Source: a virus
Lineage: Duplodnaviria > Heunggongvirae > Uroviricota > Caudoviricetes
IMG/VR virus record: IMGVR_UViG_2541047819_000005
Length of the DNA: 5,186 bases
Strand: one strand, 5' to 3'
Shown: positions 1 through 5,186 of the stretch, in pieces
Layout of the letters: every line of letters starts with the position of its first letter
Numbering within the stretch: position 1 is the stretch's first letter
Made by a program: the position numbers and the translations under genes
Notes under the pieces: generated by a model
What the model was told of the DNA's origin: nothing
The model's database searches: none
What the model saw: only the letters and a program-made list of their open reading frames with translations

Positions 1-834
1 GCATGGGCGTCAACGTGGCGCATCCCGCAATTTAAAACGGTTGGTCTGCCGACAATGGGGGCTTACCGTGAACTACGCAAATTGCCTCGCGGCGTCAGCA
101 TTGCTGATGAGTTTGACGAGCGCGTCGAGGCTGCACGCGCCGCCGCAGACAGTGGTGATTTTGCGTTGTATATCAGCGCGCAGGGTGGGGCAAATGTCCC
201 GCGCGATTGTCAGACTGTCAGGGTCGCCCGTAGCCCGTCGGATGACGTTAACGAGTATGAGGAAGAAGTCGAGAGAGTGGTCGGCATTTACGCGCCGCAT
301 CTCGGCGCGCGTCATATTCATATCACCAGAACGACGGACTGGCGCATTGTGCCGAAAGTGCCGGTCGTTGAGCCTTTGACGTTAAAAAGCGGCATCGCCG
401 CGCCTCGGAGTCCTGTCAATAACTGTGGAAAGGTCACCGGTGGTGATACTTCGTTACCGGCTCCCACACCTTCTGAGCACGCCGCAGCAGTGCTTAATCT
501 GGTTGATGACGGTGTTATCGAATGGAATGAGCCGGAGGTCGTGAAGGCGCTCAGGGGCGCATTAAAACACGGGCTGGGAACGCCAAATCGTCAGCAAAGA
601 AACGGAAGCCCGTTAAAACCGCATGAAATTGCACCATCGGCCAGACTGACCCGGCCGGAACGATTGCAAATCACCCGTATCCGCGTTGACCTTGCTCAGA
701 ACGGTATCAGGCCGCAGCGATGGGAGCTTGAGGCGCTGGCGCGTGGGGCAACCGTAAATTATGACGGGAAAAAATTCACGTATCCGGTCGCTGATGAGTG
801 GCCGGGATTCTCAACAGTAATGGAGTGGACATGA
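1..834 (+). CDS. Phage replication initiation endonuclease (P2 gpA-like), C-terminal portion; 5' end lies upstream of the window
   Basis: Frame 1 is open from position 1 to the TGA at 832-834 (the ORF track starts it at the first ATG, 55). GC is high (a sampled 60-nt line is about 63%). It sits immediately upstream of the DUF3850-like ORF and the variable locus, the position gene A occupies in P2-like phages. The assignment rests on synteny; no catalytic motif was verified in this fragment. Confidence 0.55.
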   Translation, partial: AWASTWRIPQFKTVGLPTMGAYRELRKLPRGVSIADEFDERVEAARAAADSGDFALYISAQGGANVPRDCQTVRVARSPSDDVNEYEEEVERVVGIYAPHLGARHIHITRTTDWRIVPKVPVVEPLTLKSGIAAPRSPVNNCGKVTGGDTSLPAPTPSEHAAAVLNLVDDGVIEWNEPEVVKALRGALKHGLGTPNRQQRNGSPLKPHEIAPSARLTRPERLQITRIRVDLAQNGIRPQRWELEALARGATVNYDGKKFTYPVADEWPGFSTVMEWT

Positions 835-1286
835 TGGCAAAAATTCACGAGGTAAAGCTGCACGCAAAATATTTCGACCTTGTGCTGGAAGGAAAGAAAC
901 GCGCAGAGTTTAGGAAAAATGACCGTAATTATGAGCACGGGGACACGTTGATTTTGCATGAATGGGTGCAGGGTGTGTATACGGGGCGAAAGGTTGAAGC
1001 CCGGATAACAGATGTTACTGACCTGTCAGACTGGCTGGAAGATTATGTCTTGCTAAGTATTGAGCTGCTTAATACAGGCGCATATGAGATTGTGAACTGG
1101 AAAGAACTTAGTGAGCGTGGTCTGGTATTCAGAATTAATCATGAAATTATGCATCAGCTCGGCCTTGCTGTTATGTATGAACCAGAGACGGGGATGTCTG
1201 GCGGGGCAATGGTTGCCACGGATGGAGCATGGAACTATTCAGATGAACAGATGGAGCGTGCACAGCAAAACGGGTGGCTTGGATAA
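831..1286 (+). CDS. DUF3850/ASCH-like (PUA-fold) domain protein with a C-terminal extension of about 80 aa
   Basis: The ATG at 831 overlaps the upstream stop (ATGA, 831-834). GGAG at 822-825 gives a Shine-Dalgarno 5 nt upstream. The N-terminal sequence MMAKIHEVKLHAKYFDLVLEGKKRAEFRKNDRNYEHGD matches my recollection of the DUF3850 consensus (KxxxExxxGxKxFExRKNDRxxxxGD). 151 codons, stop TAA at 1284-1286. Confidence 0.6.
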   Translation: MMAKIHEVKLHAKYFDLVLEGKKRAEFRKNDRNYEHGDTLILHEWVQGVYTGRKVEARITDVTDLSDWLEDYVLLSIELLNTGAYEIVNWKELSERGLVFRINHEIMHQLGLAVMYEPETGMSGGAMVATDGAWNYSDEQMERAQQNGWLG

Positions 1287-1339
1287 TGCACAGAATACCA
1301 GGCGAGATACCGCACCATAAAACTAAAAATATCAGGCTG

Positions 1340-1492
1340 ATGGCTATTGTTCAGCGTTTACAGCGGATTATGGTCAACGAAAATCTGACGCCCGATGAGC
1401 TGGTCGGGTGTGCCGAAATAGTCCGGGATAATTACGGGCGGCTTAACTATATCGGTCAGTCCAGAGTTGCGCCACCACCACGCAGACGATAG
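1340..1492 (+). CDS. Hypothetical small protein (about 50 aa); start uncertain (GTG 1274, ATG 1286 or ATG 1340)
   Basis: ORF co-oriented with and just downstream of the DUF3850-like gene. No convincing Shine-Dalgarno and no recognisable motif. Product MAIVQRLQRIMVNENLTPDELVGCAEIVRDNYGRLNYIGQSRVAPPPRRR. Confidence 0.3.
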   Translation: MAIVQRLQRIMVNENLTPDELVGCAEIVRDNYGRLNYIGQSRVAPPPRRR

Positions 1493-1715
1493 AGAACGCC
1501 GCCAGTCGTGAAACTTGTTTTCAGGGCTGGCGGGGTTGAACAACGAGCGAAGCGAGGCGTTAGTTGACAGACATATTTTTACTGCGTTGGTGCCGGTTTT
1601 TAACGGTTGAAAGGAGTTAGGTTGGAGAGCTAACAACTTACAAATATTCAAAAGTAAGCATCCTGTTGCTAACATGAGGTCGATTTTTTATGTGGATGAT
1701 GCAAAAAGGATAGCT
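1493..1715 (+). promoter_or_regulatory. Non-coding leader upstream of the cargo cassette; putative promoter region
   Basis: About 220 bp without a convincing ORF, where GC drops from phage-like to AT-rich. Perfect -35 hexamer TTGACA at 1564-1569 but no good -10 at 17 bp. Alternative weak pairs: TTGAAA 1606-1611 with TAACAA 1631-1636, and TTGCTA 1666-1671 with TATGTG 1689-1694. The exact promoter cannot be assigned by eye. Confidence 0.3.
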
Positions 1716-2447
1716 ATGGATACTATAATCGCTTTTCTATCACTCGCTTTTTTCGTTGCTTTCTTCATCGGGTTAATCAAGCCATCACTGGTGCGAATGC
1801 CAAACCGCAAACGTGCAAGTGCGGTTTATCTCGGAGGAGGTTTTGTATTGAGCATAATTGGTTCAATACTCTATCCAACAGAAAAAAGCCAGCCAGTTGA
1901 TAAAACTGAAACATCAACCGTTGCAGAACACAAAGTCCAAAAAACATTCGAATATGGGGAAAAAACACTCAAGGAATATCGGAACGAGTCAAAGAAAACA
2001 CGACACGATATTGTGAATAGTTACATTGATTTTAAGGAAGTTCCAGCCACCGCGTCAGATGCGTTTTATGCCTGCATGAGTGAGTATACATTTACCAAAG
2101 ATGATGAGTTGAAACTCGGTGATGTTCTTGGGTGGTGCTTTAATGATTATGAAAATGACTCGAATTCACTAAACAATAAAATCAATCTTGATACATTTCA
2201 GAGTAATTTTAGTGGTTGGGATGGTTCTTATCGTCCATTGGAAAAACTAATTAAAGATAATATGAACGATGATTCATCTTATAAACATGTGTCAACGGTA
2301 TATCATCTGGTTTTGAATAAAGACCCGTACGCTATTGTGAAAACTACGTTTCGCGGTACTAATGCTTATGGTGGAGTGGTTAAGCAGACTATAGCTGCGC
2401 GCGTCGACATACGAACGGGAGAGGTTGTATCAATATTAGATAATTGA
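1716..2447 (+). CDS. Cargo gene 1: small integral membrane protein with two N-terminal TM helices and a C-terminal domain of about 190 aa of unknown function
   Basis: ATG at 1716 preceded by AAAGGA (1705-1710), spacer 5 nt. Two hydrophobic segments: TIIAFLSLAFFVAFFIGLI (res 3-21) and AVYLGGGFVLSIIGSILY (res 36-53), separated by a basic loop KPSLVRMPNRKRAS. AT-rich (a sampled line is about 37% GC). 243 aa, stop at 2445-2447. The ORF track's start at 1674 has no Shine-Dalgarno. Confidence 0.75.
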   Translation: MDTIIAFLSLAFFVAFFIGLIKPSLVRMPNRKRASAVYLGGGFVLSIIGSILYPTEKSQPVDKTETSTVAEHKVQKTFEYGEKTLKEYRNESKKTRHDIVNSYIDFKEVPATASDAFYACMSEYTFTKDDELKLGDVLGWCFNDYENDSNSLNNKINLDTFQSNFSGWDGSYRPLEKLIKDNMNDDSSYKHVSTVYHLVLNKDPYAIVKTTFRGTNAYGGVVKQTIAARVDIRTGEVVSILDN

Positions 2448-2457
2448 TTATAAGCAA

Positions 2458-2484
2458 TGAGTGCTGAATGGTTTTCTGCACTCA
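2458..2484 (+). repeat. Intergenic imperfect inverted repeat (hairpin) between the two cargo genes
   Basis: TGAGTGC (2458-2464) pairs with GCACTCA (2478-2484), a 7-bp perfect stem with a further 3 bp of inner pairing and a 5-nt loop. Immediately followed by TATAAAT (2485-2491) and the Shine-Dalgarno AGGTGA of gene 2. Confidence 0.4.
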
Positions 2485-2512
2485 TATAAATATGAAATTT
2501 TTAGGTGATGTA

Positions 2513-3448
2513 ATGGAATATCAACTGGATTTACAAGAGAATGCTATTGATAGTTTTAATGAAGCTTTAGCAAAGTATGAGTTAGGGCAGAGAGGAGAAT
2601 TGCGGCAATATAAATTTGCTATCTTGCATTTGTCACATTTTCTTGAGCTGGTGTTGAAGTTATATATTGTTACAGTAGATGAAAATTTACTGTATTCCGA
2701 TTGCTATAAACAAATAGCTACAAGAGCAAAGCGAGAATCAATCAGTCTTTTAGACGCATATAATAAAATTATCGAGGATGGCGTTGATTTAGGAAGGTTC
2801 ATTGAAGGGAAATCTAGGCCATATACGATAACCTTAGATCAGGCACTAAACTTTGCTAAGTGTGAGAAATGTGGCATAACTGGGGTTGATTTTGTAGATA
2901 TTGATTTTTGTAATGATATAGCTTGGATAAAGAATTTAAGAAATGATATTGAGCATTATCAATTCAGACTTACTCCTAAAGACGCGCGCTTGTGTATTGG
3001 ACGCCTAGTCCGGGGGGTAGCTGAGTTTATTGATATCTTCGATCTTTTTAATCTTGAAGATGAAGTCGGTGCAGATAACTTACAGATATTTCAAACTTTA
3101 GCTGATGAATACTCTCATAGGCTCTCTGAAGCCAAGAAAGAAGTTGAAGAAAGAGAGGCTGAAGCTTTTTATGGGGTTAGGCATAAATTTTATGAATTGG
3201 TCGATTGGAAAGTTTATGAATGTCCTGAGTGTTCTAACGACACAATGATTCCCTCTGATGAGTCTTCTACGGGTTACAAATGCACTTTTTGTCAGAATGA
3301 AGATAGTGATGATATTGATGTTGCTTGCGATTGTTGTGGTGCGCAGGCTCCCAGCAGCGAAATGAGCATTTGGCCAATGGATGATGGTGATGTTGAGTAT
3401 CGTTGTTACTACTGTTCAGGGCAGTATCAGGCAGATAAAGACTTTTAA
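2513..3448 (+). CDS. Cargo gene 2: predicted HEPN-like (Rx4H motif) helical domain protein with two C-terminal CxxC...CxxC zinc ribbons; candidate RNase-type effector
   Basis: ATG at 2513 preceded by AGGTGA (2501-2506). 311 aa. Motif R143-N-D-I-E-H148 (nt 2939-2956) fits the HEPN Rx4-6H signature, with the typical N after R. Acidic/basic coiled-coil-like segment EAKKEVEEREAEAF. Zinc ribbon 1: C237-x2-C240...C257-x2-C260 (nt 3221-3292). Zinc ribbon 2: C272/C274/C275...C298-x2-C301 (nt 3326-3415). Very AT-rich (a sampled line is about 27% GC). Upstream in-frame ATGs at 2468 and 2492 lack a Shine-Dalgarno, and 2468 lies inside the hairpin. Confidence 0.8.
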   Translation: MEYQLDLQENAIDSFNEALAKYELGQRGELRQYKFAILHLSHFLELVLKLYIVTVDENLLYSDCYKQIATRAKRESISLLDAYNKIIEDGVDLGRFIEGKSRPYTITLDQALNFAKCEKCGITGVDFVDIDFCNDIAWIKNLRNDIEHYQFRLTPKDARLCIGRLVRGVAEFIDIFDLFNLEDEVGADNLQIFQTLADEYSHRLSEAKKEVEEREAEAFYGVRHKFYELVDWKVYECPECSNDTMIPSDESSTGYKCTFCQNEDSDDIDVACDCCGAQAPSSEMSIWPMDDGDVEYRCYYCSGQYQADKDF

Positions 3449-3530
3449 TTTGCTGTTAACTGCTAGGGATGAAGTTAAAAATCATAGGGCTCATCGTTAA
3501 TTTATACTCAAATTTGTTTGATTTCTGCAT

Positions 3531-3554
3531 TGCATACAAAAGATGCATTTTTTT
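3531..3554 (+). terminator. Weak candidate intrinsic terminator downstream of the cargo cassette
   Basis: TGCAT (3531-3535), loop ACAAAAG, ATGCA (3543-3547), followed by a T7 run (3548-3554). The stem is only 5 bp and AT-rich, so confidence is low. Confidence 0.25.
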
Positions 3555-3573
3555 GCATGCGTCAGACGTGCTT

Positions 3574-3597
3574 GCTCTGACAGTATATTGTCAGAGC
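3574..3597. repeat. Perfect 9-bp inverted repeat with 6-nt spacer (GCTCTGACA-gtatat-TGTCAGAGC), about 60 bp from cos
   Basis: Read directly: 3574-3582 is the exact reverse complement of 3589-3597. No adjacent T-run, so it looks more like a protein-binding palindrome or packaging-region element than a terminator. Confidence 0.5.
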
Positions 3598-3631
3598 TGG
3601 CGCGAATCTGGATTGTTCGTGCAACTGCATT

Positions 3632-3655
3632 AAAACCGCCCCATGAAGCGGGCGG
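3632..3655 (-). terminator. Hairpin plus T4 abutting cos; putative intrinsic terminator for minus-strand read-through (or structural part of the cos region)
   Basis: Plus strand reads AAAA-CCGCCC-catgaagc-GGGCGG. On the minus strand this is a 6-bp GC stem followed by TTTTAAT. It directly abuts the cos 19-mer. Confidence 0.4.
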
Positions 3656-3673
3656 GCGAGGCGGGGAAAGCAC
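3655..3673. other. cos: P2-type cohesive-end site (cos), 19-nt GGCGAGGCGGGGAAAGCAC, joined as in prophage or circular form
   Basis: Exact match to the 19-nt P2 cohesive-end sequence as I recall it from the literature. Position is consistent: about 160-180 bp from the stop of portal gene Q and adjacent to the variable locus. Confidence 0.7.
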
Positions 3674-3807
3674 TGCGCGCTGGCGGTGGTGCTGATTTTA
3701 TTTTTTCAGCGTCTGAGCGCGTCGTGATGACGTTTATATTGTGCGCCGGGGCGTTGGTGTGTCTGCGGGGTGTTTTGTGCGGTGGTGAGGGCGTGATGAC
3801 GGGGTGT

Positions 3808-3829
3808 AAAAAAGCCGCCCGCAGGCGGC
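3808..3829 (-). terminator. Rho-independent terminator of the P-Q (terminase-portal) operon
   Basis: Plus strand AAAAAA-GCCGCC-cgca-GGCGGC. On the minus strand this is a 6-bp GC stem with a 4-nt loop followed by TTTTTT, beginning 5 nt after the Q stop codon (3835-3837). Confidence 0.7.
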
Positions 3830-3834
3830 GATGT

Positions 3835-4869
3835 TCAGCCGTTGTCAGTGTCCAGTGAGTAGTTTTTAAAGCGGATGACCTCCTGACCGAGCCAGCCGTT
3901 TATCTCGCGGATCCTGTCCTGTAACGGGATAAGCTCATTGCGGACAAAGACCTTTGCCACTTTCTCAATATCGCCCAGCGACCCGACGTTCTCCGGCTTG
4001 CCGCCCATCAACTGAAAGGGGATGCGGTGCGCGTCCAGCAGGTCAGCGGCGCTGGATTTTTTGATATTAAAAAAATCGTCCTTTGTCGCCACTTCACTGA
4101 GCGGGATAATTTTGATGCCGTCTGGCTTTCCCTGTGGGGCATAGAGAAACAGATTTTTAAAGTTATTGCGGCCTTTCGAATTAGCCATGTTTTCGCGGAG
4201 TGAGTCAATGTAATCGCGATCCTGCAATGCGTCGGTGATATACATGATGTATCCGGCATGAGCGCCGTTTTCGTAATACTTGCGGCGGAACAGCGTGGCC
4301 GACTCATTCAGCCAGGCAGAGTTAAGGGCGCTGAGATATTCCGGCAGGCCGTACAGCTCCTGATTAATATCCGGCTCCAGCAGGTGAAACACGGAGCCGG
4401 GCGTGAAAGGTGTCGGCTCGTTGAAGGACGGCACCCACCAGTAAACATCCTCTTCCACACCACGGCGGGTATATTTTGCCGGTGAGGTTTCCAGTCTGAT
4501 GACCTTACCGGTGGTGCTGTAACGCTTTTCCAGAAACGCATTACCGAACACCAGAAAATCCAGCACAAAGCGGCTGAAATCCTGCTGGGAAAGCCACGGG
4601 TGCGGAATAAACGTTGAAGCCAGAATATTACGTTTGACGTAAATCGGTGAGCTGTGATGTACGGCAGCACGCAGGCTTTTTGCCAGACCGGTAAAGCTGA
4701 CCGGTGGCTCATACCATCTGCCGTTACTGATGCACTCGACGTAATCCAGAATGTCACGGCGGTCGAGTACCGGCACCGGCTCACCAAAGGTGAATGCCTC
4801 CATTTTCGGGGCGCTGGCGGTCATTGTTTTCACCGCTGGCTGCGGTGTTTTCCCTTTTTTCTTGCTCAT
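3835..4869 (-). CDS. Q: Phage portal (capsid portal) protein, P2 gpQ
   Basis: 344-aa ORF. Sequence (MSKKKGKTPQPAVKTMTASAPKMEAFTFGEPVPVLDRRDILDYVECISNGRWYEPPVSF...) is near-identical to P2 gpQ as I recall it, and the 1035-bp length matches P2 Q. Shine-Dalgarno GGAG 8 nt upstream. The start overlaps the P stop (TGATG). Confidence 0.93.
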   Translation of the reverse strand: MSKKKGKTPQPAVKTMTASAPKMEAFTFGEPVPVLDRRDILDYVECISNGRWYEPPVSFTGLAKSLRAAVHHSSPIYVKRNILASTFIPHPWLSQQDFSRFVLDFLVFGNAFLEKRYSTTGKVIRLETSPAKYTRRGVEEDVYWWVPSFNEPTPFTPGSVFHLLEPDINQELYGLPEYLSALNSAWLNESATLFRRKYYENGAHAGYIMYITDALQDRDYIDSLRENMANSKGRNNFKNLFLYAPQGKPDGIKIIPLSEVATKDDFFNIKKSSAADLLDAHRIPFQLMGGKPENVGSLGDIEKVAKVFVRNELIPLQDRIREINGWLGQEVIRFKNYSLDTDNG

Positions 4870-5186
4870 CAGTAAAACTCCAGAATGGTGGATGTCAGCG
4901 GGGTGCTGATACCGGCGGTGAGTGGCTCATTTAACAGGGCGTGCATGGTCGCCCAGGCGAGGTCGGCGTGGCTGGCTTCCTCGCTGCGGCTGGCCTCATA
5001 GGTGGCACTGCGTCCGCTGCTGGTCATGGTCTTGCGGATAGCCATAAACGAGCTGGTGATGTCGGTGGCGCTGACGTCATATTCCAGACAGCCACGGCGG
5101 ATAACGTCTTTGGCCTTGAGCACCATTGCGGTTTTCATTTCCGGCGTGTAGCGGATGTCGCGCGCGGCGGGATAGAACGAGCGCAC
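4869..5186 (-). CDS. P: Terminase large (ATPase) subunit, P2 gpP, C-terminal 105 codons; gene continues beyond the window end
   Basis: Open frame runs off the window edge (the track's initial M is an in-frame GTG at the boundary, not a real start). Ends ...TSTILEFY with TGA overlapping the Q ATG by 1 nt, as in the P2 P-Q arrangement. High GC, phage-like. Confidence 0.85.
   Translation of the reverse strand: MRSFYPAARDIRYTPEMKTAMVLKAKDVIRRGCLEYDVSATDITSSFMAIRKTMTSSGRSATYEASRSEEASHADLAWATMHALLNEPLTAGISTPLTSTILEFY

Follow-up and report, generated by a model that had tools for sequence, protein, structure and literature searches.

The cohesive-end segment of cos in a P2-like Escherichia coli prophage and the variable gpA-gpQ locus that it borders

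Between a pair of cargo genes and the portal gene Q, a tailed-phage sequence (Caudoviricetes; IMG/VR record IMGVR_UViG_2541047819_000005) carries a short motif that raises a simple question: is it the site at which the phage genome is cut and rejoined, and, if so, what does it delimit? The whole stretch of 5,186 nucleotides that was analysed is called here the window; the motif is a 19-mer, GGCGAGGCGGGGAAAGCAC, present in the window in a single copy at 3655-3673 on the plus strand. An initial annotation of the window, made from its letters, had named this 19-mer as the cohesive end of phage P2. The analysis described here identifies 3655-3673, with a probability of about 95%, as the cohesive-end segment of cos of a P2-like (Peduovirus) prophage located between cpxP and fieF in the Escherichia coli chromosome; the assignment draws on the identity of the sequence and the conservation of its flanks, on the order of the genes and the prophage setting, and on the variable cargo and the places of the breakpoints, each of them observed directly.

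The 19-mer matches the P2 cohesive end at 19/19 positions. Indeed, it is identical to both stretches annotated as cohesive ends in the P2 record NC_001895, namely 1-19 ("cosL; left cohesive end") and 33575-33593 ("cosR; right cohesive end"), and the sequence named in the initial annotation proved correct, with exact coordinates. The first 19 nt of P4 are also the same, and many linear Peduovirus records start exactly at the base corresponding to window position 3655, or end at that of 3654, 3663 or 3672. A scan of 596 Gb of species-representative genomes returned 38 copies of the 19-mer, 33 of which have conserved cos flanks and come mostly from Enterobacterales, while the other five, from Phycisphaerales, Fretibacterium, Sphingomonas, Chloroflexales and Verrucomicrobiia, show no similarity in their flanks. 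These five copies in unrelated genomes are what could be said in favour of a fortuitous G+C-rich match with no packaging role, and their number is close to the 4.3 or so chance copies expected in 596 Gb. Since the flankless copies are about as many as chance would give, the 19-mer by itself is no proof; it is the flanks, which the window has, that prove the identification. Within 5186 bp, both strands included, the chance expectation for the 19-mer is about 4e-8 (2 x 5186 / 4^19), none of 200 dinucleotide-preserving shuffles contained a match to it, even with up to three mismatches, and the flanks and the adjoining genes resemble P2 over kilobases. A chance match was ruled out by the shuffles, the flank conservation and the gene context, and the probability left to it is practically negligible.

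The flanks were compared by building the P2 junction from its right end, minus the duplicated 19-mer, and its left end, and by aligning it to the window. Homology begins abruptly at window 3626, with the same right-end flank as in P2 (TGCATTAAAACCGCCCC.TGAAGCGGGCG) and in the same orientation, and it continues through the 19-mer and the terminator tQ into Q. The first 55 bp, at 3626-3680 and with no strand assigned, make up the conserved cos core, consisting of 29 bp of right-end flank, the 19-mer and TGCGCGC; identity over this core is 54/55 to P2, 51/55 to P4 (NC_001609) and 49/55 to 186 (NC_001317), the latter differing at two positions in the 19-mer itself. The spacing to tQ and Q is also that of P2, the Q stop codon lying 180 bp from the first base of the 19-mer as against 186 bp in P2. 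Differences from P2 are A for G at 3643, the one core base that departs from it, and a 7-9-nt indel between cos and tQ. The core is common to P2-family phages and P4 satellites. Passages in PMC5694545 and PMC9594776 credit a 55-bp core of P2-family cos to Ziermann & Calendar 1990 (Gene 96:9); the placing of this published core on window 3626-3680 is an alignment made in this analysis.

Conservation around the core was profiled on 39 unique junctions (genomic loci together with P2 and P4), aligned without gaps, the loci having been chosen for an exact 19-mer. In this profile the columns 3619-3680 are mostly at least 95% conserved, and on the Q side conservation ends 7 bp past the 19-mer. On the opposite side there is an extended right-end cos flank at 3531-3605, again with no strand assigned, where column conservation is 60-90%. 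It comprises TGCA/TGCAT-rich blocks at 3531-3536, 3543-3548 and 3552-3561, around GATGCATTTTTTTGCATGCG, and a GGCGCG block at 3597-3605, all of which are kept in P2-like and P4-like elements, while the sequence between the blocks goes with the cargo. The TGCAT and GGCGCG blocks recur in most of the genomic cos loci and are clearly visible in the right ends of P4 and 186, which the window resembles to the left of the core; in P2 itself they are absent, only the last 29 bp of its right end being alignable, and the old promoter region is found in their place. From the 19-mer the conserved blocks extend leftward for about 125 bp, and the recognisable cos region, about 150 bp long, is asymmetric. 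This asymmetry suggests the right-end side of the nicks as the place of terminase binding, the 3531-3605 flank having a role in it, and the blocks of this flank may be a candidate accessory binding region for terminase or for a host factor. The initial annotation had placed the boundary of the variable locus at the 19-mer; the 19-mer does mark the border, but the conserved cos is wider, as it includes the 55-bp core and the blocks up to about 125 bp on the left, and because of this excess the edge of the variable DNA at the level of the family lies near 3530.

Some further observations concern the same segment. A perfect palindrome with 9-bp arms, GCTCTGACA-GTATAT-TGTCAGAGC, occupies 3574-3597, immediately upstream of the GGCGCG block, and P4 and 186 have other inverted repeats at the corresponding place. 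Scans of the window against Rfam and for tRNAs gave no matches. The segment 3619-3730 has a match in 2155 of 5426 complete E. coli genomes (about 40%), and the eight RefSeq records listed have no feature annotated under these matches.

A stem-loop formed by 3636-3641 paired with 3650-3655 overlaps the left of the two nicks expected at cos, and a terminator scan scored it as a minus-strand terminator directly downstream of tQ. Thus, the element could also be an intrinsic terminator on the minus strand, insulating the cargo from read-through of the P-Q operon; its minus strand reads CCGCCCGCTTCATGGGGCGG and then TTTTAATGCA, and it stands at the border of two transcription units. However, all six stem pairs are retained in only 9/38 unique junctions, with no compensatory pattern, the mismatches of 186 are located in the stem, the T-run is short and the P-Q operon is already ended by tQ, 160 bp upstream, making this additional function distinctly unlikely. 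Since full pairing is confined to those nine junctions, the element at the left nick was taken as a sequence signal rather than a conserved structure, and the idea of a conserved hairpin or terminator at this place was dropped.

The genes of the window were called by Pfam, PHROGs and NCBIfam searches, with starts set after the RefSeq annotation of the related prophage of E. coli GN04171. On the plus strand, the window opens with the 3' end of gpA, the replication initiator nickase (1-834, last 277 amino acids; phrog_91, "nicking at origin of replication"), which is 97% identical to P2 A, followed by an Orf91 homologue with DUF3850/ASCH and DUF7415 domains by Pfam (834-1286), whose counterparts are found in P2, Wphi and the GN04171 prophage, and by a small gp92-like open reading frame (1286-1492, phrog_11386), which has 68 amino acids by the RefSeq start in the relative and is annotated in the GN04171 prophage as well. 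Then come, on the same strand, cargo gene 1 (1716-2447, 243 amino acids; phrog_3403) and cargo gene 2 (2513-3448, 311 amino acids), coding for a HEPN-like and zinc-ribbon protein. Past cos all features are on the minus strand: tQ, the intrinsic terminator closing the P-Q operon (3814-3829), is GCCGCCTGCGGGCGGC followed by TTTTTT and aligns with the terminator annotated at NC_001895 160-181; gene Q (3835-4869, 344 amino acids; Pfam Phage_portal, phrog_68, TIGR01540) codes for the portal and has the same position and strand as P2 Q; the 3' end of gene P (4869-5186, last 105 amino acids) was recognised as the terminase large subunit by Pfam Terminase_6C and by terminase large subunit phrogs. The G+C content of the backbone is 55-59% and falls to 32-42% over about 1600-3600.

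The position of cos in this layout is that of NC_001895, with the right-end accessory region after gpA on one side and, on the other, Q reading toward cos and ending at tQ. The window corresponds to the right end of P2, which in P2 itself bears A, Orf91, tin and old, and to the P2 left end, the two meeting at one 19-mer. As the initial annotation proposed, the window does span the junction of the virion ends, and the cargo occupies the far right of the virion map, in the place that tin and old have in P2.

Since the 19-mer is shared with P4, the site might belong to a P4-like satellite instead of a P2-like helper phage. Besides the identical 19-mer and the 51/55 core of P4, many of the 33 genomic cos sites mentioned above have AT-rich right flanks unlike the P2/Q flank and are presumed to be satellites by their resemblance to P4. 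In the window, however, the flank past the core (TGCGCGCTGGCGGTGGTGCTG...) is of the P2/Q type and not of the P4 gop type, the site stands between gpA and the genes Q and P, and psu, sid, delta and a P4 integrase are all absent. A satellite origin was ruled out by the right flank and the neighbouring genes, and is highly improbable. P4 and 186 are like the window in the core and in the TGCAT and GGCGCG blocks, while their left-end flank and the neighbours past the core are different, being gop in P4 and the W portal in 186.

The assignment to a P2-like phage is extended by the source of the DNA. An exact-protein search with Q led to the E. coli scaffold KE700774.1 (GCA_000458875.1; here locus L050), whose final 5186 bp, when reverse-complemented, give the window exactly. 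The scaffold ends inside gene P, and a run of 1055 N (L050 5187-6241) inside gpA borders window position 1, so that the truncated gpA and P are assembly artefacts and not pseudogenes. Beyond the gap the scaffold codes for DUF5405, TraR/DksA, DUF2732, RepB, Cox, an HTH repressor and a tyrosine integrase; the integrase lies at 9192-10172 of L050 and is followed by a 47-nt attachment (att) core at 10288-10334 and then by cpxP and cpxR, both 100% identical to those of E. coli. The cox and C genes, the integrase and the 47-nt att core beside cpxP on KE700774.1 indicate an integrated P2-like prophage; together with gpA, Orf91, Q and P in the window, these are the P2-like surroundings and the int and att elements that the initial annotation had named for a check.

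The nearest complete genome is that of E. coli GN04171 (L003), the prophage of which has 3 differences (99.9% identity) over window 1-3729. This prophage measures 33,421 bp, lies between cpxP and fieF with a 47-nt direct repeat at either end (attL and attR), and has a full P2 gene order (int, C, cox, A, cargo, cos, Q, P, O, N, M, L, lysis, tail genes, D, ogr); the same 47-nt core is found between int and cpxP in the source scaffold. In the GN04171 prophage cos is internal, 8.8 kb from attL and 24.5 kb from attR. The description of the 19-mer as a prophage end-joint is thus right for the joint between the ends of the virion DNA, but the ends of the prophage are the att sites.

An IS21-family ISEc12 element (istA/istB) splits a tail gene in the GN04171 prophage (L003 32112-35165), where cos is intact; the GN04171 prophage is probably defective in spite of its cos. 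Nothing contradicts the identification of cos in the window, for which cleavage and virion ends would follow the P2 type by analogy. Three points limit it: the conservation profile, based on ungapped loci with an exact 19-mer, overstates the conservation of the 19-mer and may understate that of the distal flank; the source scaffold stops within P, the late genes lying outside the sequence seen; and the insertion in the closest relative means that such prophages can be defective with an intact cos. The window could hold an intact cos in a defective remnant prophage, being either a relic or a site used only if a helper supplies terminase. This account would fit the scaffold end inside P, the split tail gene of the relative and the finding that defective P2-like elements are common (PMC13586616). 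It is opposed by the core, which differs from P2 at a single and poorly conserved position, by Q, which is full-length and recurs as the exact same protein in several complete-looking P2-like prophages, and by gpA, Q and P, in which no frameshift or stop codon is visible within the window. A remnant is considered unlikely, and cos may well be currently functional in this prophage. Of the cognate terminase genes, the window holds only the last 105 amino acids of P; full P and M (Phage_term_smal) are present in the closest relative and in prophages with identical Q.

A functional cos would operate as follows. During lytic growth, terminase, made of the gpP large and gpM small subunits, would recognise the cos region on circular phage DNA, most probably through the 55-bp core at 3626-3680 and the weaker blocks at 3531-3605 on the right-end side. 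From the annotations of P2 and of 186, whose record NC_001317 gives the cut geometry, two nicks 19 bp apart are expected, at 3654|3655 on the top strand and at 3673|3674 on the bottom strand, which would leave 5' overhangs of 19 nt. One genome length, from cos to cos, would then enter the capsid through the Q portal, so that the linear virion DNA would have Q and P at its left end and gpA and the cargo at its right end. After injection the overhangs would anneal and be ligated. As the overhangs re-anneal, a single 19-mer joins the right-end cargo to Q in circular and prophage forms, as the window shows. The cos of phage lambda (cosN, cosB, cosQ) is comparable in having staggered terminase nicks in a larger region, 5' cohesive ends and packaging from cos to cos, whereas its overhang is of 12 nt and its sequence is unrelated to the P2 type. 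P2 is reported to package from monomeric circles, not from concatemers.

The interval from the gpA stop codon (834) to cos is the known accessory hotspot of P2-like phages, between the ends of the early A operon and of the P-Q operon closed by tQ, and the only hard constraint on it would be the total length from cos to cos. Modules would be exchanged by recombination, with crossovers in or next to the cos core and at or after the end of gpA. That the locus is variable is evident from loci with the same Q: next to one and the same 344-amino-acid Q protein (100% identity) there are five different cargos, which are a 537-amino-acid protein of unknown function, an 864-amino-acid SIR2_2 protein, GmrSD with HEPN and a DNA methylase, an M78 peptidase with a 213-amino-acid protein, and the pair of the window, cargo genes 1 and 2. 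The view of the cos-proximal region as a tolerated variable locus is also found in published work. Rousset et al. 2022 (PMC9122126) describe the gpA-gpQ locus next to cos as a hotspot, for which E. coli has 1,650 arrangements, and P2-like elements with identical core genes bear wholly different defences (Moura de Sousa et al. 2026, NAR, PMC13586616). The reason given in the initial annotation, that insertions would be tolerated because the locus lies outside essential operons and yet inside the packaged DNA, is reasonable and agrees with this literature. The window cargo is already listed, in Table S5 of Rousset et al., as DUF3850/ASCH + WP_004099447 + WP_004099450, described as "hypothetical + hypothetical" (PMC9122126); these two accessions are those annotated in the near-identical GN04171 prophage.

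The closest known equivalent is this gpA-gpQ hotspot of P2-like phages, which in P2 is the tin/old locus: as in the window, it lies between A and Q beside cos, the insert is low-GC and the cargo varies among prophages whose core genes are otherwise identical. The window differs from P2 in that its cargo, a pair of uncharacterised genes, runs on the strand of A, whereas tin and old are read from the other strand, under a promoter of their own.

The limits of the variable DNA can be read from where homology to the window stops. In the loci with identical Q, it stops at 809-826, at the end of gpA, and resumes at 3544-3622; the stop at 809-826 applies to L046, L047, L048, L051, L012 and L033, and no DUF3850 gene was called between gpA and Q in L046, L047, L048 and L051. 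Homology ends instead at 1054 for P2 and at 1564-1565 for Wphi and L042. As these stops differ, Orf91 and gp92 are semi-variable too, and the variable interval runs from about 830 to about 3540-3620 with both of them included.

On the side of cos, the breakpoints are close to the core. Over the 1500 nt to the right of cos, L047 and L051 are 100% identical to the window, yet L047 diverges from it left of 3641 and L051 left of 3631. Conversely, in GN04171 there are 84 differences in 3730-5186, a divergence of about 6% from 3730 on, as compared with the 3 in 1-3729. Recent breakpoints are thus found at 3620-3641 on the left and at about 3730 on the right, on neither side more than about 75 bp away from the 19-mer, and the segment common to L003, L047, L051 and the window is the cos core with about 55 bp on the Q side. 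Since all the compared loci share this segment, one crossover per module swap is placed inside it. On this comparison of sequences, the A-cargo and Q-P modules have separate histories and are joined at cos.

These breakpoints leave room for a bolder proposal, in which cos would be an engine of cargo turnover that focuses recombination and, in addition, cargo gene 2 would be a single-gene HEPN and zinc-ribbon anti-phage effector; taken together, this is a tentative idea, possible and short of being probable. The focus could be due to double-strand ends made by terminase at cos, or to the near-identical island of about 90 bp at 3642-3729 that all P2-like phages share. The fit to cos-focused swaps comes from few comparisons, with breakpoints at 3631-3641 and about 3730 and with the flank 3531-3620 inherited with the cargo and not with Q. 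If the proposal were true, every cargo swap would have one of its crossovers no farther than about 75 bp from the 19-mer.

As regards the cargo itself, the product of cargo gene 1 has, by eye, two hydrophobic and putatively membrane-spanning stretches near its N-terminus and gave no match in Pfam, PADLOC or NCBIfam. It has 159 homologues; all those with a source name are from Enterobacterales and are called "hypothetical". The gene is common in Enterobacterales prophages and has other downstream partners in other P2-like phages. The product of cargo gene 2 has an N-terminal helical, putatively HEPN-like domain with an invariant R143-N-x-I-E-H148 and C-terminal cysteine-rich zinc-ribbon modules; searches of Pfam, NCBIfam and PADLOC gave only a partial match, to PDC-S64. 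Its homologues adjoin a Cap4-type nuclease, an Mrr-type nuclease or conjugation genes, and those of Pseudomonas, Acinetobacter and Klebsiella are never beside a gene annotated like cargo gene 1. An obligate pairing of the two genes was rejected, as each is found without the other beside different neighbours, and they are probably independent. It would be reasonable to guess that cargo gene 2 codes for a HEPN-like RNase that serves as an effector of abortive infection.

The feature at 3655-3673 is a known element in a known context, real but ordinary: the sequence of cos, its occurrence in P4 as well and the hotspot beside it have all been published already and no new biological question arises from them, the only mildly new item being cargo gene 2, the uncharacterised product of which is HEPN-like and has zinc ribbons. 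The cos site is useful mainly as an anchor for annotation, with the left end of the virion DNA expected to start at 3655 and the right end to stop at 3673, and the gpA-gpQ accessory locus has its right-hand border there. Once the site is recognised, it is easier to delimit the cargo genes of such prophages, which are candidates for anti-phage or lysogenic-conversion functions.
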